Shown here: positions 40,346 to 63,550 of the stretch, one piece after another
Layout of the letters: each line of letters opens with the position of its first letter
How positions within the stretch are numbered: position 1 is the stretch's first letter
Source: Laetmonice hystrix
Taxonomy: Eukaryota
Direction: 5' to 3'
Assembly (NCBI GenBank): GCA_965235115.1
Contig: OZ249436.1
Span: forward strand, 21,268,001 to 21,332,000
DNA length: 64,000 bases
Translations under genes and position numbers: made by a program
The notes under the pieces: model-generated
What the model was told of the DNA's origin: nothing
Databases searched by the model: none
What the model saw: only the letters and a program-made list of their open reading frames with translations

Positions 40346-41632
40346 TGTTGCAGGGGTGGAACAAGAACTGGTTAGTATGAGGACTGGGTGATGTGAGTAG
40401 ATGAAGGGTAGAACACGGACGGTGTGGTGTGGGTACTTAGGGATAAAGAAACTTGTTGGTATAGGGTACCACTGGGAGAAAAACAAGTACTGGTTGGTAC
40501 CAATACACAGGCGTAGGACAGGTTGGCTGGCAGGTGACGGTAGACGTACCCGAGCCCTTATTGCTCAGTTCAGAAATGCTCCATGTGAAAGCTATTACAG
40601 AGTCGGTTCAAAGTCAGAGAGAAGAGAAAGAGAGAGGGCCGGACATTGGGTCGGGTCGACAACTCTCTCATCAATCGGTCTGGGGACAGGTTGGCAGGCG
40701 GAGGGCGTCAGACTGGCCCACAACCAACTACCACATCAATCCAAACTCAAGTCTTGCAGCAATTTGCAAGTGATCAACGGACTCGCAGTAACTGGAGCCG
40801 AGCTGTTGCCGGGCCACCCTCCCACTCGGCCGCTCGCCCCATGTGCCCGACATATCCTTCCTAATCAAATTCATATTTCACGTGTCGGGGTCAATCGCTG
40901 CTAAAGTCGGCAAGCCTTCCTTAATTTGACGGTTCAAAGTGAGTCGCGTACTGCTGTAATTGTGTGCAAATTGAAGAAAACCGACTCAACTGACTTATAA
41001 TCTGTTCAGGAAACATTAAAGGGCAACTTAAGACGCCCATCGAAATATTCCCACAAGACAATTTGCATGTTATACTCTGAGAATAGCGTATTTAAACTCT
41101 AACGGTCCGCTTGATAATATTATAATAATGATTCTTGTCATGACGTCCCCTAACCTTATTACTTTAACACTCCGTCCACACTTAGATCTGTGCATAAAAC
41201 CTGAAAGAAATACTACAAGCCACCTCTCCTAATAAATCAAATACGGGCACCTAAAAACTGACAACTTAAAAAAACCCGGAGATTATGTGTCCCTCAGGTA
41301 TCTGTAAAACGTGTTAGTGAATATGTTTTAGTGTCGTGAAGGTCAATGGTACAAGATAAACCGACAACCCCATCACTGGTTGTGATGCTGCATGTCCTGC
41401 AGTCTGTGGTTAATGAAACGATTGTTGTTAGTGAAGACCTTCACCGTCTACACCATCAGTTTACATCTGTCTACACCTGTAGACATGATGACACGTGTTG
41501 GCGGCCATGGTATAGAACATGTTGAGTATACTGTTAGTAAACTTTAGTGACCAGAGCCCCTCAGTCTAGAGTATGTGAGTTCCGTGCCCAGACACCAGAG
41601 TGAGACAAATACACGGTGGTTGTACGACTTAC

Positions 41633-41785
41633 TCGTGTACTGGGTGAATGTTGGTAAGAACGTTTCTTGGCTCAGAGGACCTGTTTGAACTGGTTTCAGT
41701 TCAGTCAACGACCCTTCGTCCCCGGCCTTGTCCGGGGCCGGCGAACCTCCCTGGTTCGTGGCTGTTGTCGGGTTGTTGTTGTTTG
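41633..41785 (-). CDS. Pax2/5/8: Pax2/5/8 internal exon
   Basis: ttatttcag|CA ... ACG A|gtaagt; 153 nt, phase 1/1, open frame (T)NNNNPTTATNQGGSPAPDKAGDEGSLTELKPVQTGPLSQETFLPTFTQYT. Confidence 0.82.
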
Positions 41786-42606
41786 CTGAAATAACCGGTC
41801 AACAAAGTCCAACATTACTACTTTGTCGACGGCGTAAAACGGCTACTCGCACTGAACGTTAACAGTACGGGTTCAGACCACAGTCCGTGTGAGTTCTGGC
41901 GAAGGTTTGGAATGGTAGCCGAAGAGTTTACTGTAGATTGCTGAGCATCGACCGTAAACCTATGGTAGGATATATTATAACCCTATATCACTGGAGACTG
42001 GGTGGTCTCCTCGTGACGTCATCATCCGGGACCTTGATGTCAGTTAGGGATGATGTACACACCAAGGTCTGTACACTGTTACTATCAGGTAAATATGTGC
42101 AGGCGGGGGATTGTCTTTACATAAATATCCAGATCAGACTCCAGCTAGGACCTTTCTAAGACTACTGGATGCTTAATCTTCTAGAAAGAGAATTTAGAAT
42201 GGCTTTAGAATCGAACCCATTTTCGTGTTTTTTAAATATTTTTCTTCGCACCTTTTCTATTGATGGCACGAATAAGTCATACCAAAAAAAACGAATAATC
42301 CGACAGACAATAATAGATGATCCCCTTTCTAAAGCCATTCAATCGAAACTCTCATCGATACACACAAAACAGCAACATTATAATATTGGTAAAAAAAGCT
42401 ACATGTAAAATGCACTATAGGATCTAAACATGGGCAAAGTTCACACGAAGCATTCAGTTACGATTTTAAGAGCTACGTTACGGCATGCAGCATATCAATA
42501 CATATAAATGCCCACACGTGATCTGAGAGGCATGTTGTTAACGTGAGAGTCGACCTGTCGACAGTGGCGCCCCCTTCTTCCTGTGCACAAAGAGCCCAAA
42601 ACTTAC

Positions 42607-42737
42607 TTTCAGCATACTGGCTCACTGGCACAGGGGTAGTCGATTGTTGGTGTTGGATTTGCACTTGCTGTTGCTGTTGTTGCTGCTGCTGTTGCTGCTG
42701 CTGTTGCTGAGACTGCTGTTGTTGTTGCTGATGCTGT

Positions 42738-42775
<38 letters not shown>

Positions 42776-42900
42776 CTGTTGCTGCTGTTGCTGGGGTACG
42801 ATACTAGCAGGGTCGACAGAGACCAATGTAATGGTGGGTGGTTTCACGTCGGCGGCAGTGACCACTGTGGCTAGTTGGACGGTCGCCAGTGCGTTATTGC
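42607..42900 (-). CDS. Pax2/5/8: Pax2/5/8 internal exon with polyglutamine tract
   Basis: gtttcgttag|GC ... GAA A|gtaagt; 294 nt, phase 1/1. Encodes (G)NNALATVQLATVVTAADVKPP...Q20-H-Q6-S-Q15...PVSQYAE. Confidence 0.82.
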
Positions 42901-45900
42901 CTAACGAAACAACACAACACGCCGATCAAACTCAAGCCTACCACACACAATCACATGCCATTAACTGGGGGTAGGAGATTTAAATAAAACAAAAACTTAT
43001 TGGTAAACTAAAGGTGCATGCTCGACAGTCAATCAATCCACACAGTGAACAGGTCTGATCTTATTCCACATGTTTGCATAATGATTTGTGTTCTCTAGAT
43101 AATCCTAAAGAGTTCAAAATTCAAAATTCACTTTATTTCCACGTTCTTAACGATTTAGTCGGGCTACATCTTTATAAACTAGGGTATTGTTGACGTGGGG
43201 AAAACCTAAAAATCATTACCAAAATGGATAGTCAATAATTGATAGTCAATGTTTTTATGCTATAGTTCTAATTCAACACAATACTATATGCAAACAATTG
43301 TGTGGGAATCACCTTAAGCGAAATCATTCAAATGCTATGCTGGAAAATGTAGCGTGCTTTTCCACCAGTAAGATTCGTGCTCCAGCATCAATACGTCAGA
43401 AACAGTAACACAATGCAGAGATAGTTAAAATACGGACGAAACATGATGCAGAAACATGCAGGGGGTACCATGCAATAATGGGTCATTCTCAAGTCTCAAG
43501 TGTTTGCCTGTCGGATATTTACGTGGGGTAGGGTTTTTACCCGGATAAAAGAACCTTTCCCCAGCGTTCGCTCCGCCTGTAACTTGGTTTTTACAGTAGT
43601 TGAATGAGTGCCGACTGAGTGAGCGTTGACAGGAGTGGTGCTGGATGAAGACATAGTAGGATCACAGCATGCTTGTGTCATGAACGGGAGCTGGATGACG
43701 GGGCGCGGGCCGGGGGCCGTGCTGGGCTGGCCGGGGGAGGCCCTACCCACCCCGTTAGAAGTGGTCAGCGGGAGGCCGGGGTAGTAATGGGCGCCCGGTC
43801 GGCCCGCTACACGTGTTCTCGGCCCGGCCCCTCCCAACCGTCAAACCCTGTGTCCCCGGCCACTACATCACCCGTATACCATACGCTATCAGACGTCCAG
43901 TCGGGCACATCTTGAAAACGGCCAACCGAAAACGACACTCGTATACCAAACTCCGGAGGTTTTTTTTATCGTCTGGAGGAATCACCCCAGCGGTATATCT
44001 CCATGCTGAGGAAATTCGATTTAAATCTCCTCCCTCCGACCAAGCTGCGGGCTACTGCTGCGGCGACAATGAAATAGGCCTGCGAATCATGTGCAAGATG
44101 GCATTCTCGATATGGAAGCCAGCTTTACGTTGTCTGTAATACGTCACTGATTACGACTCTGTGCTATCCCCCAGCAGGTCTGTCCAGGAAAGTTCTCAGA
44201 CACGTGTTCATGGTAACCACAGCCAAATTGGTGCTGGGATATGGACAGCAGAGCCTGTGGTGATCTGTGTCGGAACACAGGGATATGATTGCCCGTATCA
44301 TGCCATATCCACCACGGGGCAAACATGTCGGGCATGTAGGGGATGAAACCGGAAACTCTCGCCTACAAGTGTAAGGGGTCAGTCGGCGGGAAGTTGGCCA
44401 TTTACTTTTCCAAGTAACACAAGCTCCAAAGTTTGGTGTTGGCAGCCGTTTGTAATCTGACAAACATGTGCAGACTGTCATCAACCTCTAGCTGGCTGTC
44501 AACACATGGTCAAGTATGGCTGAAAACATGATTTACCTATCCGGCTCGCTGCCTGGGCAGCCCTTCTTATTATAGTCCCCGGGACCCGGGTAATCAGTGT
44601 GCATGTGTAACAATATTGAGGATGCTCCCAGACACAAATACCAACCTTTCTAAAGTTAGAGATTTTTTTCTCTAACCTGATAAAGCTCACAGCATGCCAT
44701 TCTTACACTGATTGTAGACCTTCAAGTTGTGTATCAGAACCACATGAGCTGTGGTGACGGATGCGCGACACCCAATACGTCATGTCATTTGGCGATACGT
44801 CAAGTTTGCATAGCGAGATTTCTGGCTGCTTTGGTGGCTTGTTGGTTTTTGTGGTGTTTTTGTTGGTTTTGTGCTTGACCTGGTTGGCTCGATGACAGGG
44901 TCGGTCAGCGCTAACGGTGTGTGGATATTCCGACACGATGACGATTTAATGACAAGGACGTAATGTCTCAGAATGTTGCGAGTGTTGGGATACATTGTAA
45001 GTTAGAGGCTGTGACAGGGGAGCGGGGCCTGCTTGGAGTACGACCCCACTGATGTAAGCCATGTGTGGAGGGTGGTGGGAGAGGGAGGAAGGCGTGGGAC
45101 GGTTGGTGGAGGTGGGGAGGACAGCGGCGGCCGAGGGTAGAGGGCTGGCCGGGGCCGTCCCCTGCCGGCTGCCGTCCACATGTTATACACAAGGAGCCCC
45201 GGCGGGGCGGTGACGGCCGCCGCCTGGAGCCGCCCGGTGCCCACCTCCCGGGAGCTCCCCGCCGACCCGCCGACCGGCAGCAGGTCGAGCCAGCCCCGAC
45301 ACGCACATCCAACCGGTACCGACGGAAAATTGCTCTGCATGCTGTCCTTCCAAAGCCCATTACGCTAGTTACGACAGGAGCGCAAACAGCGGTAATCGCG
45401 AGTACTACAAGTCGCTTTTTGATCGTAAAGACGCGGCTTTTACGAGTTCAAGGCAATTTTAAACAACTATATCCTGCGCTGCTTGCGGGAGACAGTATTC
45501 GTACCCACCGACTTCCGCTAAAAAAATATGACGTCATCGAGAGGCTCAAATACTTCAGACATCCCAATATTTTTCATCAGTTTTACAGTATGCCATTTTC
45601 TTCCAATACGGAAGAGCTACATGAATTGAGGAAGTTTTCAGTTAATGTGTTTACTCCCCGTCAACTCGTTGCGGTTCAATGACACCCTCAGTATACGGTC
45701 TATAGCGACGAGAGGAACGGCCAGCAATAAGGGGCCAGGGGCTATTGTTCAATGTCATGGGTATTTACTCCGGAAAAACATCCCTTCTCTACTATGATGA
45801 CTTTATAGCCAAAGGCTCTCTCCTCAAGAGGCCAAAATTGTTAACATATTTACAACTGGCCCGGTGTATGTTCTTCACACTAATACTGAGATAATTAGTC

Positions 45901-51400: not shown

Positions 51401-54400
51401 CGCCCCGTGCCGCCATCCAGCCTCCGCCACCCCGTACCCAATGTCTGCCGGTTACAGCACAGTAAATTAAAGACGGTGACACCTCAATCGGCCCTGGTTA
51501 CACGGTCAGATTAGGACACAGTCACAAGTGTCGTTCAAAATGTGGCCATTAATATCAACGGCCCGGACAGCGTCGAGAATTGGCTCACATCATCTGCACA
51601 TCAATTTAGGTCCCCTGCGCAAAATTCTTCCTGCGCAAAATTAATATTCGCCAACACACATGGCCAGCCGATGTCGGTATCTAATTGTCTAGTATGTGTA
51701 ACAATATGACAACACACCGACACTGTGGTCAAAGTAGGACGTCAACTTCTGTTCGTATTAATGGGCGTGGTGTTGACTCAGTACAAGTAGTATATGGCAA
51801 GAGTTGTAAGTATCAGGCACTATCCAAGGTTTCGTTCTAGCCGATTGATTGGGCTGGGTTAAAGTTGAACGTTTTCAGCGTGTATAGGTTGGTCGTTTCA
51901 CGAGGTTCTACAATTATTGATACAGTGAAGGGTTGGGATGATACAACCACGTGCCCGCGGACGTACGGACGGACGGACGACCGAGAAATGAACAGCAGGA
52001 GGTATGCCTTCTCTCTATTCTCTCCCGTATTTCTATTGTGACGGTTCACAACCAATGATTCACTTAGTGTCACGATCTAATTATTTCTTCCTAACTCCAT
52101 TAAGGCGTTGATTGTCGAGGCGGGGCCGTCTGTTTATAAATATTGACGGGTTAGGCCGTCCGGCCTGCTCCGGTTCTCGATTAAACCTATCAGTCCAACA
52201 AACAAACCCACAATCGGATCACTATCGAATTACCGGCACTCCAAGCTGCGGGTTATCTGGGAGATAATGAGTGCCATCATCCTGTTGTTATAGTTATCTC
52301 TTCAAGGGGCCTGCCGTGTCATGGCATTGTCACCGTAATAACATTAGGACCCTCCTCGCAACGTGACACTTTGCCCCGACAATTAATCTCTACCCGAGCC
52401 GAGCTGTCCTGTCTCGGTCTACACGGGGCGCTGGGTGTGATCGCCCGGCTGAGGTGTGCACCCGGTCATCGCAGTCCGACCTGCACTTCTAGACGGTCCA
52501 AGGGAACCGCTACCGTGCTATAGAAACGTCTCCCGTTATATAAAGGTCAGCCTGGGTCTGAGAAACACAACCCGACTGATTCCAGCCTAACATCACCCCC
52601 TCCCGTCACCCCAAACACCCACCCCACCCCCCTCACATGGCCAATTTATGGACGCTGCTTTATCTAGCAGGCCCACGTGCCCAGCCCTGCCGCCCGAAGG
52701 AGACAAAAACCCACCCATCTCCCTGATTTATTTATTCGACAACCTTTTGACACGTCGATAAATTAGCGTGCTACATCATTATGCATTTACTTGGGCTGGA
52801 GACAATATTTCTGGGGCGCCAACGTAGTGACCTTATTGTGCTGTGCGCGTGTGTGCAGTAGTGAGTGCGCCTCACAAGTACCGCCTTCTAGCCTTCAGGG
52901 TTCCCCGGCCCCGCCACGCAAATGGAAAGGGGGTCGGTGGGGGTCTGGAAATCGAAACGAAAATGCACGTGGCCAAATGGATTCCATATCCGCCGTGGAA
53001 GTGGTCTCAATAAATCCAATTGAGACAGGTTCTGTGGGGTTTTCTGTGGCGGCCGACTGATGCACTAAGTCGTGCTGTGTGCCCTCGGGTGGAACGGGCT
53101 AGTCCTCATTTACATTAGGCGCATGTATGGCAGAGACAGCCGGCCCGACCGCTATACCCAGTTATAATGTATCTTTGTATAATTACCACCGCCCCGCCAC
53201 TATGACCACCACAGACGGCACTCATGAAAAGATGCCGGTTATTAAAAGCATCTGCGTGCATTAGACTCGTTCGTGACGGCTTAGGATGTCGGGGCATATT
53301 TTCACATAGATCGATTTGGTGATGGATTTCGTATCCGCCTCAGCCGCCCACAACACCACCCAACCCCACCCTGGTGGGTGCGTGCAGGGAGGAGTACGGA
53401 CCGTCCACCTCAGCCAAGCCGGGGCTCCGCGGCCGACAGTCCCGGCAAGTGGGAGCTACGATCGGCTATCCATTTCCCTACGTATTGTCAATTTCCAGCG
53501 TAGGGAAGCGAGTGTTCGCATTAAGTCGTAGGTAGGCATCTCCGTGCCACCATTGCCACCATTGCCACGTGCGTGCCGCATTGTTTGCTTACTCTGCCAC
53601 AAACCGCTTTAATGGGATATTCATTTAAGCGATCGGCGCACGACATGACAATCATCATAATAATTCTCTCATAAATTGGATGGATATTTGTCCTATTTCC
53701 GGCTGGAGGGTGGCAGTATCGATCGAAACATCAAGCAGGGGGCTAGCCATCACACAATTGGCGGCACGCTGTTCTTTTCACCGCCTCAATTCGAAAAGAA
53801 CGAAGTGGTTGGAAGCGAACACATCCTAGAGTTAGGCCTACATCCCTGTGCTCCTCCATACACATGTAAACTCTGCGAGGATCCCCACGCCTACCGACAC
53901 CCACACTCCAGGACCTGTTAAATGTGTACGATCCACACGCTCCGAATCACATGACTGACTTCAATTATAAATAGAGTGATGTGTTCAGGGGCCGTATAAC
54001 AACCGTATACTGTATTATACGATATACGATACGGGAGGTCGGCTGTCTGGTCCCTGTACTCCCCACCATGACATGGTATAGAGGAGTCTGGATGGGTCTA
54101 TGATCAACCGTTCAACCCTGTTATAGTGACAACTTCATGTCTAACCTCCCTGTAATAAACATAGCGCCATTCTACTGGTACGGAAACCAAACCCACATAG
54201 ACCACGCTTCCGTTCACGTTTATACTGTCTAAATCTCTCACATCTTCAACAGACGCCGGGGGGGGGGGGTAAGTTAAAGGTGATTCTATACGATTTCAGA
54301 CACTTTTCACTACACCCCCACCCAAATATACAACTTAATACCTGTCACTATTCACACAGCGCTGGGACACTGAGATGCCTATACCATGTATTTAGTCCAC

Positions 54401-54513
54401 ACAGTCAGGGCGTTAAAACATGAATGTTCCCGATTACAATGTATTTGTAATTTTTAAACTAAGACCAGATATCGTAAGACCACAAAAACTGTAGAGTTGA
54501 AGGTTTTCCTTAC

Positions 54514-54746
54514 CTGGTTCGTCATGCCGCCGTTTATTGTTGCCATTGACGTCAGCCGTGGGTGTGATGGAAGCAGGTGGGTGTGATGTTGGAATCCCTA
54601 TGATACTCGAGATGCTGTAAGACTGTGGCGGCCCACTATGTGCGGTGGGAGCCTGAGTGATCACTGGGGTGGCGTTACCCGGCGCCACCGGACTACCCTG
54701 GCCGATCTGACTCTTTGCCTTCTCCGCCGCCTTGTTCCGTACTATC
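54514..54746 (-). CDS. Pax2/5/8: Pax2/5/8 exon: end of paired domain and octapeptide
   Basis: ttacag|G ATA GTA CGG AAC completes ...INR-IVRNKAAEKAK. Contains octapeptide YSISSIIG (cf. YSINGILG) and basic KRRHDE. Donor G|gtaagg; 233 nt, phase 2/1. Confidence 0.93.
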
Positions 54747-55489
54747 CTGTAATAACGACGCCCGATTAAAACACCACTTTTAGTATACTACTCACAACAA
54801 AAGTCTTAACCTAGCCCTACTCAAGTATCGTCGCCACCTGGGCGATCCATACGAGCCGAGGCAGGCTTTTTCTCTCTCAAACACATTTGTTCTATAACCT
54901 TCAAACTAGAAGTCGTTGTCATTACAGGCCAATGTTTTAACAGTTAATGTGAGCGAATAAATCTATATCTGCCCAGGATCGGTTTATGACAGTCTTTGTT
55001 CCGTTATAAGCCGTTTTGTGTCGGGATTTATTGGTAGGTCGAAGGTTCAAACACAAGCATCCGGTGAGTAAAGCAGTCTTCACATAACCGTTCTATTCAC
55101 GTCCGACCCGTATGGTTACAGGGGGCACTAAGCCGACACACAGCGGGAACTTTACGGTACTCTGTGACATAACTGTCCCCGCTAACATCCACAGCCACCT
55201 TTTGTTACATAGTAAATAGACTGAGGTGTGCCACTGACCAATTGACGTAATCCCGACTGTTGGAATTTAAATACTCATAAATTACGCTTCTTATGGACTT
55301 TTCACACCAATGTGTTGTTCTGGAGTGTTGGACAGAATCTAGCTGCCACATAATACGATACTGTCCAATTGTTCTGACCAAGAATTAAGGGCCCCTCTAA
55401 GTGCCTGGAGTAGGTCTACAGTGAGGCTCGTTAGAGGGGACCCTATTACACCCCCCTTCTAACCCCCCCCCCCCCGCCGCCAGAACCTA

Positions 55490-55606
55490 CCCTATCCCTC
55501 TCTCTCCATTCACCCCCTGAACCCACCCTATCTCTCCATTCGCCCCCCCCCCTTGAACCCCACCTCTCTCTCTCTCCATTCACCCCCTGAACCCACCCAC
55601 CCCCCG

Positions 55607-55647
<41 letters not shown>

Positions 55648-55666
55648 GTCTCTCTCTCTCTGTCTC

Positions 55667-55746
<80 letters not shown>

Positions 55747-55806
55747 CACCCCCTAAACCCCCCTCTCTCTCTCCATTTACCCCCTGAACTCTCTCTCTCT
55801 CCATTC
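55490..55806. repeat. CT-rich microsatellite and compound repeat
   Basis: (CT)n/(CTGT) interleaved with ccattcaccccctgaac units. Confidence 0.9.
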
Positions 55807-56941
55807 GCCCTCACATTGAAGGTTGACACGGACTTCCTGTTAGTCGGGTGTGCTCGCACAGATACATATCGTCCGTTTTATGTATACGTTTGACAAAAAC
55901 AGCTCGGCCACGCTATCACTCGATCCAAACGATCCAGTTGTAATTTAGAAAACTATTGCTTTATATTAAGTTACCTCTCATTTAATGGCTGTGTTATGGT
56001 ATAGTGATGAGGATAATAATAATATCAATTTCAACAGTAATATCAACAATTATGTATAAATATACACTGACAACATTCGTACAGTCATGCAGCGACAGTA
56101 ATATGACGACAAGGAACAACAATGATTGTACGTGATTACATATAATGACGACTGCGCCGACAGAAAACATGACCAACTACCACTTACAGCACACACGTCG
56201 GAAGGTTGGACAATGTGAGCGAAGGGTTCACGAGAGTTTGGAGAGTGTGACTGGGGACATACCCCCAGCACGACGACAGTCAGTGACGTCTAGGTGTGTG
56301 ACCCCAGCCATGGTGTCCAAATCGGTGGTGAGTCTCGGTCGGACTCCTCTGTCATTACAGGCTATACCCAACCGTACCCCCTCTCACCTCTCCCGTTTAA
56401 AGCCCCCTTTCACTCGCAGGAAACTATCCCTACCCTCACCCAAATAATCTCTCAACACGCAAACTACCCCCACCAAACTCTGGACAGGTTCCCTCGCCAC
56501 TTAGCCTCGACCCACTCTCACCGCTATCCATACCCATAATCAACCACCACTTAAGAAAGTTGGCCAGGCCATTCCCATAGAAACCCATGGCCCGCTGTAT
56601 TGTGAACGTCACATCAAAAGATCTGGGTAGCACACCATAAGACAGTGCGGGAGGTTTTGGTGTCCCCGGAAACGACAGGAGAGGACAAGGGTTGGCACCT
56701 TGATACAGAGAGTTAGCAATGTCACATCGTGAAGGTCGTCTGTTCTCTGACCTTGACATGCACATCGAGCGGTCTCAGGAATCCACAGGGTGCGATTTCT
56801 TAAAGGCTATCCGTCTTCAACTTCTGCTTAAAGGAGCCGAGTGACTTAACCTTGATATCTAAACCTTTCTTAAACCGGGTGCGAGGATATTGCTACTCAA
56901 AGTGGAAACATTTCAAACAGGGATAGTGAGGACGAATGCTG

Positions 56942-57077
56942 GGCCCCGTTCTTAAAATCTGAAGATCTTGCCTAAGTTTAGGCTTAACGCTTCTGATTGG
57001 CTGGTGTGCTTAGACCAGCCAATCAGAAGCGTTAAGCCTAAACTTAAGTAAGATCTTAAGATTTTAGGAACCGGGCC
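56942..57077. mobile_element. Fully palindromic MITE, PIF/Harbinger-like
   Basis: ctg|ggccccgttcttaaaatct ... agattttaggaaccgggcc|ctg; ~63-bp arms around a 10-nt loop; 3-bp CTG duplication. Confidence 0.85.
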
Positions 57078-58121
57078 CTGGTTGGATGTGGTTTGTGTGG
57101 GCAGAGACAGAGAGAAGATGCTGTAGAGGAAACTGTGTATCCATATCCCACCTACAAGTCTCCAATTTCAAATGCCACGTAATTTCAGACGTGACAATAG
57201 CCTTAAGCGTAAGAAATGATAGGTTTTAGGATATAAGTTTGGGCTTCACACTTGCCATTCACTTGCTGCGTCTGCTTGACTTTGCCCTGACTGACTCCCT
57301 TCCCTCGATTGGGACGCCCAGACCAGATTGCGCGAAATTCTGAAAAACACAGAACGTGTCGTCACCATGGGAACAACGTCTTTTCCTAACATGCAGGAAT
57401 CATCAGCCAAAGGATATAGTGTTATACATTTCAGTCATATTTTCACCCCCCAAAAAAGCACAACCAGTTACATTAACAACAGGAAACGTGCTTTTTTGGG
57501 TAATTCCAAACAGAATATGGGGCCAAAAATAGACGACACAAAATATGACAGGTAGTTTGACAGTATTTTACGTCATTTGAAGCAAAACCAGTTCGTAATT
57601 GTCTCATTCGACTCTGGTCTGGGTTCAATCGCCTTCATTATTTCAATAAAGTGTGACGTCTGCAGACAACAGTTAAAACTTTCTTTTTTTTAAAATCATC
57701 TTTCGACCGTCTCCGGCCACATTATCTGTATGATCATTATTATCTCTAAGATTATCCAAATGGTTCTTATAAATTTTCTACTCCTGTTGCATAATTGCGA
57801 ATACCGTCAACGGAACCTTTAGCATTTGAAATTGAGAAGGTTCCTTCGAAAGGTCGGAAAAGTACATGTCATTGTGAAAGTATTCATGCATTTATATTTT
57901 CAAAAATCTTACAACAAGACTTAACTATTGATGCAAGATATTAAAACATGATGACGATATGCCTATAACATTTTGTGATAACTTAACCTAGTAACAAACA
58001 GTGGCAGCAGGTAATATTGCTGCTGGACGTTTCGTGTCACATGCATGTTAAACACGGGCATAGCTTTCATCACAACTGTGAAAAGCAGTCACACGAAAAG
58101 GTCGTCGTTTCTCGGAGGAAT

Positions 58122-58350
58122 GGATCCAAGAATGACAGGGTGTAATCTTGTCCACTGGATCCAAGACGATCCAAGAATGACAGGGTGTAATCTTGTCCAC
58201 TGGATCCAAGACGATCCAAGAATGACAGGGTGTAATCTTGTCCACTGGATCCAAGACGATCCAAGAATGACAGGGTGTAATCTTGTCCACTGGATCCAAG
58301 ACGATCCGAGAATGACAGGGTGTAATCTTGTTCACTGGGTCCAAAACGAC
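58122..58350. repeat. 45-bp tandem repeat, 5 copies
   Basis: Unit gatccaagaatgacagggtgtaatcttgtccactggatccaagac. Confidence 0.95.
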
Positions 58351-60383
58351 AAACGTTCGTCAACATTTACGTAAAATTGGGTTAGATTTTGGCAAGACTG
58401 CTACCATTTATGTTTTGACCTACTTTTGAAAAATCTAAATTTAATTCATGTCGCTCCGGAATGACTTTGGTAAAGTTAGGTAAAGTTTTAAGATTGTGGT
58501 TGTTGTTCCAGAATCTACCAGACGAGGCGTTGAAAAGTAAAATATCCTGTTGACATTTAACAGGAAGGAACATAACGGCCGTTACACGGAACTGTACCTT
58601 GAAAACGGTGTCTAGCCTTGTAGTACGATTTTCCATACCACTTGTTAACATTTAGTAACATAACTAGGTCTTATAGAACTGAAGGACCTTCATCTACTTT
58701 GAGTGGGGGGAGCCTTTGGTGTGATGTCGTGCCATGTATAATAAACCATGCGATTTCATGTACGATGGCGCTCGTGTCGGCCGACCTCGAGTCACGTGAT
58801 CAGTTTGAATGGCGTCTAATTTGGGCTAATCACACGGGTGATATCCCGGGGTACAAAGACCCAACTTGTTGCTATCCATGACGACATGAATGTATACACG
58901 AAAGTGCAGGGGTTAGTCGGGGTCTCCGGTCGTTGTCAACTGTCCACCCACCCGCCCCCTGGCGGCCAGAAATCACGGCACACTATAGCACACAACATGA
59001 ACACGTTGGCTGACAAGTATCGTTAGTGCGGGGTGGAGGGGTGGGGTGGGGAGGGGGTGGAGGGGGGTGGAGAGGGGGTGTATACTGTAGGGTCTATAAT
59101 TGAGGCAGAGCTTGGCATGTATGTAATGATATAATGTCCTCTAGTACCGTCAGCTGATTTTACAGAGTCAGGCTCAGAAGGTATGCGGTACACATGGAGA
59201 AGGGGACACCGCGGGACTGGATACATTTCTTAAAGCTACACCCTCCAGTATATACCAGGGACATTAAGAATACCGAAGGGCCTCTAGAGTAACCGTTACG
59301 CTTTGCTCTCAAATCTATTACACCCCCTTGCCCCTTTTTCTTCCAGCCTATTTGGAGATACAAAGTAGGTCTGGTCTCTGCGTCATCAGGTTAGCCCCTT
59401 GCGTGTTTAGACATCTAAAAAATCTACAGAAGGGCCAGGGTGTCCCAAGTGCGGACCATCTGGTGCGTGAAACGTAATCGGCGTCTGTATTACTTGGGTC
59501 AACTCCGCCGGCCTTTCCTCTCTCTATTCTCTTGTCTATCTATACACTGTAGGGGCTATACGGTCTCAACATGGAGTCAATTCACTGCTGTAAAATATAC
59601 GCAGAGATGGCCATCTATATCGACTTGACTTCAGCGACAGTTTCCTTTAACGGCTCGTGGTCGTAAACACATCTTATCTTGATTACATTCAAACGGGCGT
59701 TAGTGCATTACCGCCCAACGTCCTTTGTACCGCCACTTCGCCAGTCTCACCACAAACTTCTCACGTTACCATGACAACAAAGCATTCTATGTTGTGCCAG
59801 ATCAAACTTTCCATTTTCGGGGCTGGGGTTGAGTTCAACAGAAAAGGGATAAATTTAAAATGAACTTTCCGAATTGTGAAAAAAAAATCGTGTTGCCTTC
59901 ATGTAAATTTATGTGAAAAAGAATGAACACCACAAGTAGAGTGTGTGCCGATAGGTCCAATAATAAAAATAAAGCGTGGGGAAATACATGTACAAACATG
60001 AACACACAACAACAGGCGACAACTCGGGAAATCAGCAGAAAGGTTAGCCATCCAGCAGCAGCAGCAACAACAACGACAACAACAACAACAACAAAATATT
60101 GATTCGTTGCTGGATTTGGAAAGATGCATGCATTGATTACATAACGGCATGCAGCGCAGCTTGAAGAACAGGTACGGGTTGTGTGTTGTACCATGCATGC
60201 ATGACTCTCTCCGACCAGGCGACCAGCCGACCAGCGACCAGCCGACCAGCCACCAGCCGACCAGCCACCAGCCGACCAGCCGGGGAGCCACGACTATCCC
60301 ACGGCTCTCGGCCGACACATGCGGGGAGGGTGTGCGACACAAACACACTGCCACCAGAAGGTGGCCCAGTCTTGTCGCCTTAC

Positions 60384-60581
60384 CTATTGATCGAGCTCAC
60401 TGACGGCACGTTTTCTTGATCACAGACTCCCTCGGCCAGGAGCCGGTCACGGATCTCCCATGCGAACATGGTTGGGTTCTCTCGCTTGTACTTACAGATG
60501 GCATCGACTACCTTTGGGGTTGCCACCTTGGGTTTAGATCCTCCGATAACTCCGGGTTTTATAGACCCCGTCTCATAGTAC
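60384..60581 (-). CDS. Pax2/5/8: Pax2/5/8 paired-domain exon (linker + RED subdomain), copy B
   Basis: 198 nt, ttgcag|G ... AG|gtaagg, phase 2/2. Encodes (R)[65 protein letters not shown](R), closer to canonical Pax2 than copy A. Confidence 0.96.
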
Positions 60582-60650
60582 CTGCAACATCGGAACCGCA
60601 ATGCTCAAACCCTCTCCATCAATGTTGTTAGAATGGGTTACAACGCTTAC

Positions 60651-60848
60651 CTGTTGATGGAGCTGACGCTAGGAATGTTGTCCTGTGTGCACACTGACTC
60701 GTTCAGCAATCGATCGCGGATCTCCCACGCAAACATTGTAGGATTCTCCTGTTTATACTTGGTGATTGCATCCACCACCTTGGGTGTGGCCACCTTGGGC
60801 TTCGAGCCTCCAATAACTCCTGGTTTGACGGATCCAGTCTCATAGTAC
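60651..60848 (-). CDS. Pax2/5/8: Pax2/5/8 paired-domain exon (linker + RED subdomain), copy A
   Basis: 198 nt, acceptor ttgcag|G, donor AG|gtaagc, phase 2/2. Encodes (R)[65 protein letters not shown](R), the C-terminal half of a Pax2/5/8-type paired domain. Confidence 0.95.
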
Positions 60849-61586
60849 CTGCAATGGAAACAAAGGGGGGCGGGTCCACCACGGTTAGCGTTCATCTCCT
60901 GAAGACGTCACACCACCACCACCGGGTTGGCTACAGCTCCTGGCCACAAGGCGTCAGTCACTAAGGGTTAGATAAGAAACGGCATGCTCTCAATGTTAGT
61001 ATCATCCGTTAGCTTGAAAACGAATGGAACAGAAATACGCTTTAATTGCCCCAACTCGCCAGGGATGGAAGAGGTATAGACCTATTGAAGATTCCATGTT
61101 ATTATATTGATAACCACCACCGTGAGTTTAGTCAGGTCCATATATCAGAGATAAGGTGCTTGAAAATATATAATTTAAAACCGTCTATTATTATTATTAT
61201 TATTATCATTATGGACAGCCTAATTCTGACTGAGTGCAGCCTTTAAAAGTCCCCTCATAATGACATGGATAACGTTTTTTAGTAATAGATCGTTATCCAA
61301 AAAAAATAAGAAAGCTCACAGACCGAATTACATCTTGAGTTCATCTATACTAGTGTGACTAAATGATTCCTTCCGTCTAAAGTACCCACTGAGTCCATTA
61401 TGTCACCTTTTAGTGCCTCTTAACATTGCATAATTCCATGTCTAGCGGTGTCACCGGTCTATGAACACAACCATTAACGCAAATAAGGATCGAATGGAAT
61501 GCTTTAGTAACTTTACGATCTTGGAGAACCACATATCAAAGTAGATCTTTGTGCTCTTTTCCCTCCCTGAGTATGCGAGGCGATTA

Positions 61587-63048
61587 TAGGACCGCCTGAG
61601 TCTGTATCTCAGTCTGACTGGTCGACAGGCCGGGGTTCGTGCTAGGACCGCCTGAGTCTGTATCTCAGTCTGACTGGTCAACAGGCCGGGGTTCGTGCTA
61701 TAGAACCGCCTGAGTCTGTATCTCAGTCTGACTGGTCGACAGGCCGGGGTTCGTGCTAGGACCGCCTGAGTCTGTATCTCAGTCTGACTGGTCGACAGGC
61801 CGGGGTTCGTGCTAGGACCGCCTGAGTCTGTATCTCAGTCTGACTGGCCGGGGTTCGTGCTAGGACCGCCTGAGTCTGTATCTCAGTCTGACTGGTCGAC
61901 AGGCCGGGGTTCGTGCTAGGACCGCCTGAGTCTGTATCTCAGTCTGACTGGTCGACAGGCCGGGTTCGTGCTAGGACCGCCTGAGTCTGTATCTCAGTCT
62001 GACTGGTCGACAGGCCGGGGTTCGTGCTAGGACCGCCTGAGTCTGTATCTCAGTCTGACTGGTCGACAGGCCGGGGTTCGTGCTAGGACCGCCTGAGTCT
62101 GTATCTCAGTCTGACTGGTCGACAGGCCGGGGTTCGTGCTATAGGACCGCCTGAGTCTGTATCTCAGTCTGACTGGTCGACAGGCCGGGGTTCGTGCTAG
62201 GACCGCCTGAGTCTGTATCTCAGTCTGACTGGTCGACAGGCCGGGGTTCGTGCTAGGACCGCCTGAGTCTGTATCTCAGTCTGACTGGTCGACAGGCCGG
62301 TGTTCGTGCTAGGACCGCCTGGGTCTGTATCTCAGTCTGACTGGTCGACAGGCCGGGTTCGTGCTAGGACCGCCTGAGTCTGTATCTCAGTCTGACTGGT
62401 CGACAGGCCGGGGTTCGTGCTATAGGACCGCCTGAGTCTGTATCTCAGTCTGACTGGTCGACAGGCCGGGGTTCGTGCTAGGACCGCCCGAGTCTGTATC
62501 TCAGTCTGACTGGTCGACAGGCCGGGGTTCGTGCTAGGACCGCCCGAGTCTGTATCTCAGTCTGACTGAACGACAGGCCGGGGTTCGTGCTAGGACCGCC
62601 TGAGTCTGTATCTCAGTCTGACTGGTCGACAGGTCGGGGTTCGTGCTAGGACCGCCTGAGTCTGTATCTCAGTCTGTCTGGTCGACAGGCCGGGGTTCGT
62701 GCTAGGACCGCCTGAGTCAGTATCTCAGCCTGACTGGTCGACAGGCCGGGGTTCATGCTAGGACCGCCTGAGTCGGTATCTCAGTCTGACTGGTCGACAG
62801 GTCGGGGTTCGTGCTAGGACCGCCTGAGTCTGTATCTCAGTCTGACTGGTCGACAGGCCGGTGTTCGTGCTAGGACCGCCTGAGTCTGTATCTCAGTCTG
62901 ACTGGTCGACAGGCCGGGGTTCGTGCTAGGACCGCCTGAGTCTGTATCTCAGTCTGACTGGTCGACAGGCCGGGGTTCGTGCTATAGGACCGCCTGAGTC
63001 TGTATCTCAGTCTGACTGGTCGACAGGTCGGGGTTCGTGCTAGGACCG
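61587..63048. repeat. 56-bp minisatellite, ~26 copies
   Basis: Unit taggaccgcctgagtctgtatctcagtctgactggtcgacaggccggggttcgtgc. Confidence 0.97.
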
Positions 63049-63550
63049 ACCGCCAGGGTGCGTGACTGGGTCCAGGTGAGCAGATCGACTGCTGATAATA
63101 CGTCTATATCCTGTCCTGTTCCCTGTCAGCACCATAGGTGCCACCCATACATCACCAGGGTCCAATCATAGCTAAAACCGTCAGTCTGGCTGGGCCACAA
63201 CTCAGTCATTCCCGGCCGGGGCCTGCATGGGTATATACACGGTCATGGCGTGCACGTTCATGATCCATGCCATGTGCTTGTACGACCCCCACCACCTTAT
63301 CATACTATACATGTAAACATGTAAGTACATGAAGTCTGCCCTCACCACGCTGGTGACATACAAGACCTTCCTGACTATGCTGTACACGGTAACATCCCAC
63401 ACGGACTACATGTTTACACCCCTAGAGTACCAGGTTGGTCTCTGTCCAGCTAATAAAGGACGTTTAAAGGACGGTATCAGTAGGTTATAGTGTATTATGA
63501 ATGAAACGTTATCTGATGTTTTTTTACATGAACCGTACCTGGAGTACCTG

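Follow-up and report, generated by a model that had tools for sequence, protein, structure and literature searches.

An ancient and probably mutually exclusive pair of RED exons in a Pax2/5/8 gene of a lophotrochozoan-type animal

The gene organisation we propose combines one exon for the PAI half of the paired domain, two adjacent homologous exons for its RED half, and one common tail. The window, by which we mean the whole stretch of 64,000 nucleotides that was analysed (C1:21268001-21332000 of a 627-Mb, 35-contig genome), is best explained as carrying the central part of a Pax2/5/8 gene from an animal of lophotrochozoan type. Its two RED exons, A upstream and B downstream, form a real, ancient and probably mutually exclusive pair, and we consider this explanation, taken as a whole, to be likely. 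Most likely, each mRNA takes a single copy, giving PAI-A-rest or PAI-B-rest, an exclusive use that we infer for this organism from the evidence laid out below. The elements of the window on which the argument is built are the following.

60849..60873, minus strand: pyrimidine-rich tract and acceptor of exon A, ccgcccccctttgtttccattgcag, read from the sequence
60848..60651, minus strand: exon A, upstream copy, 198 nt, phase 2/2; linker and RED to the start of helix 6, ending IPSVSSIN
60650..60582, minus strand: A-B intron, 69 nt, GT-AG
60627..60631, minus strand: branch-point-like CTAAC, the sole CTAAC of the A-B intron in a motif scan
60581..60384, minus strand: exon B, downstream copy, 198 nt, phase 2/2; alternative version of RED, ending VPSVSSIN
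54746..54514, minus strand: next exon, single copy, starting with G; remaining part of helix 6 (IVRNKAAEKAK), octapeptide-like YSISSIIGI and basic NKRRHD

Exons A and B have the features by which tandem exons are recognised: they are adjacent and homologous, equal in length and phase, and each possesses its own splice sites (acceptor cattgcag and donor gtaagc for A, acceptor gttgcag and donor gtaagg for B), the tract before the acceptor of B being, when read from the sequence, poorer in pyrimidines than that of A. A repeat finder reports them as one direct pair of 209 nt, 267 nt apart and 75% identical, and the similarity ends about 5 nt outside each exon boundary. Both match the Pfam PAX profile (PF00292) at positions 57-121 of 125, which represent the linker and RED half of the paired domain, with E-values of 4.6e-32 (A) and 4e-33 (B). 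Over 65 codons, 24 are identical, 33 differ synonymously, among which the serine of codon 60 (AGC in A, TCA in B), and 8 change the residue (A/B: V/I, T/C, Q/R, N/A, S/G, T/D, D/E and I/V). The first-pass annotation had given the same exon coordinates, length, phase 2/2, acceptors and donors, and its hand count of 33 synonymous codons and 8 residues is exact when compared codon by codon. Exon A is 94% identical to the RED segment of Lingula anatina; exon B is 98% identical to the downstream copy of two metagenome loci (L040/L041) and 95% identical to isoform X1 of Tubulanus.

The assignment of the gene results from its context in the complete genome. A whole-genome scan with Pfam PAX reveals a single PAI exon for the locus at C1:21340016-21340195, on the same strand, about 11 kb upstream of the RED pair and beyond the window. 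It matches PAX positions 1-60 and ends ...KILG, GGA AG/gtaggc; exons A and B both start with the G that completes this Arg codon, and both end with AG. When five related full-length proteins are aligned on the window, the downstream exons are matched once each, in agreement with the earlier claim of a single downstream set, and the RED exon is matched twice. Since the PAI exon is single, the RED exon matched twice and the downstream exons once, we are dealing with one gene comprising one PAI, two RED and one tail. Its best full-length matches are proteins named Pax-2/5/8 from brachiopods, nemerteans, annelids and molluscs (86-95% identity), the other Pax loci of the same genome are at most 71% identical, and the closest solved chains are those of Pax8 (2K27) and Pax5 (1K78). 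The octapeptide-like YSISSIIGI and the NKRRHD stretch can be aligned to the corresponding region of Pax2/5/8 from Lingula and Terebratalia. The gene thus combines a paired domain with PAI and RED, nearest relatives in Pax2/5/8, and an octapeptide followed by a basic stretch, which are the features of this class.

Some other elements of the locus deserve to be recorded. Between the PAI exon and exon A, the intron contains a long array of 56-nt tandem repeats (window positions 61577-63100, approximately) with repeated reading frames. A short-period repeat at 60206-60304, with units of 8 and 15 nt (CCAGCCGA-like), is GGCUGG-rich on the RNA strand; it begins about 80 nt downstream of the exon B donor and might act as an intronic splicing element. 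Within the intronic segment 56761-57262, the depth of the read contigs, about 40 before, climbs to 10,000-42,000 and loose ends are numerous, which marks a very high-copy repeat. At 42473-42925, on the minus strand and thus on the strand of the gene, an open frame of 150 aa that includes a long run of glutamines sits between the octapeptide exon and an LTELKP-like segment (41544-41798), and is probably a Q-rich exon of the Pax2/5/8 gene. Elsewhere in the same genome, C30:1559422-1563132 (L016, L022-L038) holds about 21 tandem units of about 180 nt, in each of which the last part of a PAI exon, belonging to another Pax gene, precedes a (CT)n run. A full PAI exon and a RED exon flank this array on either side, some of its units are joined into open frames of up to 446 aa, and its appearance is that of a minisatellite derived from the end of an exon; a smaller relative is present at C30:1533736-1535001.

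Raw reads spanning two adjacent copies had been named by the first-pass annotation as a check, and three short-read runs of one sample, mapped on 54000-61500, provide them. The runs are DNA-like, introns and exons being covered evenly and without exon joints, and one contig per run (768, 804 and 799 nt) covers 60283/60252-61050 unbroken, spanning A and B. Because these contigs cross both copies, the tandem is no assembly artefact, the contigs being an assembly check rather than independent support, as the runs possibly derive from the assembled sample. This possible sharing of the sample is the one specific point in favour of the idea that the tandem is an artefact or a recent, meaningless local duplication, for which there is otherwise a general possibility. 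Besides the spanning contigs, the idea is opposed by coding parts that are 73% identical with saturated synonymous sites, and by the recurrence of the same pair in 33 unrelated contigs, so that we hold its probability to be negligible.

Both copies bear the mark of selection. Window A and B differ at 53 of 195 bases (8, 6 and 39 at the first, second and third codon positions), which corresponds to a dN of 0.119 and to saturated synonymous sites (39 of the 65 third positions differ). Between orthologous copies, omega ranges from 0.025 to 0.052 for the upstream A type and from 0.010 to 0.036 for the downstream B type, in those comparisons where dS could be estimated. These values support the view, already expressed in the first-pass annotation, that both copies are under purifying selection. 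This selection is strong, and neither copy is a decaying relic.

The same pair is present in other loci. Metagenome contigs were scanned with exon B, yielding 80 Pax2/5/8 loci that were searched by tblastn with A and B. Two tandem copies on the same strand are found in 33 of the 80, always in the order of the window, upstream A and downstream B, and they fall into three sequence groups.

Group 1 (L040, L041, L046, L047): upstream copy of A type; downstream copy of B type, up to 98% identical to window B
Group 2 (24 loci): upstream copy more divergent (YYDTGSIKPRV...); downstream copy of B type
Group 3 (L101, L105, L108, L109, L111): downstream copy a divergent B type; upstream copy 60/65 identical to Bugula neritina

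Both acceptors and the upstream donor are canonical in 33/33 of these loci and the downstream donor in 32/33, that of the remaining locus being cut by the contig end. In L040 and L041, one PAI exon lies about 2 kb upstream, in the same order as in the window. The upstream copy of L047 is 64/65 identical to the Lingula anatina RED and is followed by a B exon 73 nt downstream. Two database fragments, P0030 and P0186, would in our reading, which comes from comparing their N-termini with the shifted frame of exon A rather than from a computation, each run through an out-of-frame upstream copy before an in-frame copy of B type. Mollusc-, insect-, chelicerate- and deuterostome-like loci show one copy within their flanks (tblastn), and among 185 proteins the mollusc isoforms carry one RED version per species, whatever the isoform. 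A separate metagenome contig encodes a Pax3/7-like sequence (P0219) with a paired domain and a homeodomain, then a second partial paired box and the start of a homeodomain; either two genes in tandem have been merged in the reading, or the contig is chimeric.

The distribution of the two types in a RED tree (75 segments, 65 columns, 14 redundant group 2 rows being left out of 89) argues for an old duplication. The RED exons cluster by type and not by lineage: the downstream copies of the three groups form one group with window B, Tubulanus X1 and Lamellibrachia (support 84/82), and the upstream copies form another with window A, Tubulanus X2, Lingula, Bugula, Terebratalia and the molluscs (90/92), inside which the group 3 upstream copies join Bugula neritina (99/96). 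Forcing window A and B to be sisters lowers lnL by 10.3 (p-AU 0.049), and forcing four lineage-specific duplications at once lowers it by 30.7 (p-AU 0.019, LG+G4) and is rejected. Taken one at a time, with the copies as one clade, a lineage-specific duplication is not rejected for group 3 (p-AU 0.10) or for group 2 (p-AU 0.33); the groups of all these tests were defined once the tree was known, and an alignment of 65 columns has little power, so that single-lineage AU tests are underpowered. Diagnostic residues concur with the tree over 21 distinct pairs.

Cys29: downstream copies 21/21, upstream copies 0/21
Arg/Lys33: downstream copies 21/21, upstream copies 0/21
Asp54: downstream copies 21/21, upstream copies 1/21
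Glu56: downstream copies 21/21, upstream copies 3/21

B states are also met outside the pairs, Cys29 in L060 and L068 and CDQ in Priapulus and chelicerates. Since B states thus occur in deuterostome-type and ecdysozoan sequences, copy B looks as if it had kept ancestral, bilaterian-like residues, copy A being the derived one; and as molluscs are placed among the A-type copies, they would have lost B. The tandem duplication of the RED exon arose before several lophotrochozoan lineages split, both copies having remained coding ever since. The old duplication supposed by the first-pass annotation is borne out in this respect, tblastn in relatives and the exon tree giving A and B clades across loci.

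In relatives, protein models contain the two versions as isoforms. Tubulanus polymorphus XP_074648388.1 and XP_074648389.1 (X1 and X2, both 574 aa) are identical at 562/574 positions, and all their differences fall in the RED exon (66 residues); X1 is of B type and X2 clusters with the A-type copies. Likewise, Procambarus clarkii XP_069173293.1 and XP_069173298.1 (X1 and X2, both 657 aa) are identical at 644/657 positions and differ in the RED exon only. Both pairs come from automatic RefSeq annotation and represent annotation-level evidence. Four crustacean models (P0003, P0004, P0006 and P0007, from Portunus, Petrolisthes, Amphibalanus and an older Procambarus entry) join both RED copies; one of them is flagged LOW QUALITY by its source, and they look like predictor output. 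As they string both copies together, crustacean genomes hold a pair that predictors mishandle.

A common origin of the window pair and the crustacean pair was considered and finds no support: the order of the copies is reversed in crustaceans, the ancestral-like copy being upstream, and a tree constrained to an arthropod-only origin of their pair is not rejected (p-AU 0.29). From these two points, the crustacean pair is a probable parallel duplication. The two derived types, that of the window and that of crustaceans, sit together weakly in the tree (81/78). The complete history that we would draw from these data, in which the A/B switch is older than the divergence of at least four lophotrochozoan lineages, disappeared in molluscs and was re-invented independently in pancrustaceans, is offered tentatively, as a possible scenario that we would rather doubt than assert.

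How would the use of both copies in one message be avoided? Among the 33 loci, the A-B intron measures 25 nt in one (L111), 48 nt in four, 52-81 nt in 24 and 213-225 nt in four that belong to one sub-lineage; it is thus of 25-81 nt in 29/33. In the window, CTAAC lies 23 nt from the exon A donor and 46 nt from the exon B acceptor, and is a putative branch point judging by its motif. The exclusion would be steric, the intron being too short, and the best branch-point motif too near the exon A donor, for A and B to be spliced together. This model is our best-supported guess for the use of one copy at a time. An intron of 25 nt is clearly too short to be spliced out; the 69-nt intron of the window may be spliceable in an invertebrate. 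Both introns have GT-AG ends. In group 2, CACCTG occurs by eye in 12/15 distinct short A-B introns (e.g. L043, L050 and L055), about 20-35 nt before the downstream exon acceptor, and is possibly a conserved splicing element.

Competing RNA structures, another mechanism considered, were set aside, pairing being at chance level in all folding and duplex comparisons. Together with its flanks, the A-B intron gives a fold that does not improve on shuffled sequences (z -0.64); the longest inverted repeat, between the exon A donor and intron sequence after B, comprises 26 nt at 77% complementarity; and duplexes between the exon A donor and the 400 nt that follow B have chance-level energies, both in the window and in 8 related loci (z -1.1 to +1.2).

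A message containing both exons would escape nonsense-mediated decay, since their joint inclusion (198 nt) is in frame, and might be translated into a Pax protein in which a single PAI is followed by two RED subdomains. The kept frame, the GT, AG and branch-like motif of the 69-nt intron, and the four crustacean models holding both segments speak for such a product. The related introns of 25 nt (L111) and 48 nt (four loci) are, however, too short or marginal for splicing, and their retention gives a stop or a frameshift, just as reading through the A-B intron of the window meets an immediate stop (AGg taa); moreover, the Procambarus and Tubulanus isoforms of the curated pipeline take one copy each, and one of the double models bears the LOW QUALITY flag of its source. 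We regard the double-RED protein as very unlikely. The mutually exclusive use advanced in the first-pass annotation gains indirect support from the isoform pairs of relatives in RefSeq and from the short A-B intron; for the organism itself, we infer it.

A more serious alternative is that one copy only is used, probably A with its stronger pyrimidine tract, the other being included so rarely that the gene makes effectively one protein. It is consistent with the pyrimidine-poor acceptor tract of window B and with Lingula anatina, in which 12/12 isoforms of the cluster examined carry the A-type RED only, an observation that makes it less likely that B is often used in this species; as L047 nevertheless has B, this exon may be rare, restricted or unannotated there. 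The divergent upstream copy of group 2 is likewise absent from the full-length proteins found, the protein search having returned only a 122-aa genomic frame (P0220). On the other hand, the reading frames of both copies are still open, their splice sites canonical and their omega 0.01-0.05 across many diverged loci, an unused exon would have decayed at such saturated synonymous distances, and the RefSeq models of Tubulanus and Procambarus use each copy. The use of one copy only is therefore judged unlikely, and we retain the alternative use of A and B.

The two forms would be two versions of a transcription factor that share the PAI half and the recognition helix and differ in the surface of helix 4 and in the loop between helices 5 and 6. 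A structure model of the 65 residues (mean pLDDT 70, residues 1-17 below 50) predicts helices at 22-34, at 40-49 and from 61 onward, and alignment to Pax6 (6PAX) equates exon residues 1-65 with paired-domain residues 57-121. The A/B differences are distributed as follows.

Position 7: linker
Positions 29 and 33: helix 4
Position 49: end of helix 5
Positions 51, 54, 56 and 58: loop between helices 5 and 6

None of these eight differences lies in the modelled recognition helix, whose start, PSVSSIN, does not vary between A and B or among 25 aligned copies. Since this start is identical, the swap would more likely act on a surface, or on how the recognition helix is set, than on direct base contacts. 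The two forms may differ in function, for instance by the tuning of DNA or partner binding that the first-pass annotation proposed.

Pax2/5/8 genes act in the patterning of sensory organs, excretory organs and the nervous system, and small insertions in the PAI half, or paralogues, are the usual explanation for the choice of targets by one Pax protein. Exchanging the whole RED by an old and conserved swap would solve this problem in another way, and the A and B forms constitute a natural pair of proteins for testing the contribution of the RED subdomain. There are also consequences for annotation, as several public models fuse both copies or give only one, and for studies of Pax evolution based on a single sequence per species, which mix A-type and B-type exons. 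If the switch is indeed ancient and was re-invented in pancrustaceans, Pax2/5/8 would have been repeatedly selected for two RED surfaces, the two forms would control different targets or partners in different tissues, and Pax genes would possess a regulatory layer that is absent from model organisms (vertebrates, Drosophila, C. elegans).

Duplicated or mutually exclusive paired-box exons are undescribed in the full-text literature that we searched, a coverage outside which subscription journals fall. The supposition of the first-pass annotation that such exons had not been described holds for this literature; it does not hold for automatic annotation, which already gives isoform pairs in other species. 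In the parts of a review of Pax2/5/8 and Pax6 splicing that deal with Pax2/5/8, exon duplication goes unmentioned, and the variants presented are insertions, alternative sites and skipping only (PMC4488758). A survey of lophotrochozoan Pax genes states that the Pax2/5/8 isoforms of annelids remained elusive (PMC5333810).

The pair can be compared with four known systems. The known paired-domain splice variants, Pax6(5a), Pax8(S), Pax3/7 Q+/-, Pax5 exon 2 skipping and medaka Pax2 exon 2 (PMC4488758), resemble it in that alternative splicing alters the DNA-binding paired domain of one Pax gene; as described there, they consist of insertions, alternative sites or skipping, mostly in or beside PAI, whereas here the whole RED module is swapped. 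The Tubulanus and Procambarus pairs are alike in their equal length and in differences limited to the 66-residue RED exon, but they belong to other phyla, come from automatic annotation with no paper found, and in the crustacean the order of the copies is reversed. In Lingula anatina, isoforms XP_013394323.1 and XP_013394322.1 have the same length and differ at 7/536 residues, all in the PAI exon (GGV/GNL, V/I, A/V, V/I, I/V and G/S between P0009 and P0201), which suggests that this Pax2/5/8 gene has a duplicated, alternatively used PAI exon. It is the same gene family, with equal-length isoforms whose substitutions are confined to one paired-box exon, but the alternative exon is PAI and not RED; the present genome has one PAI exon at the locus, and no second one like that of Lingula appeared there in the Pfam PAX genome scan, nor in the 28 of the 80 metagenome loci that contain a PAI exon. 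Finally, exons 2 and 3 of alpha-tropomyosin are mutually exclusive because the intron is too short or the branch point lies near the upstream donor. The adjacent homologous exons, the very short intron and the CTAAC 23 nt from the upstream donor recall this case, while the sub-lineage with introns of 213-225 nt, the in-frame joint inclusion and a mechanism proposed from the sequence set ours apart. The A/B pair adds one more example to a well-known arrangement, that of tandem alternative exons.
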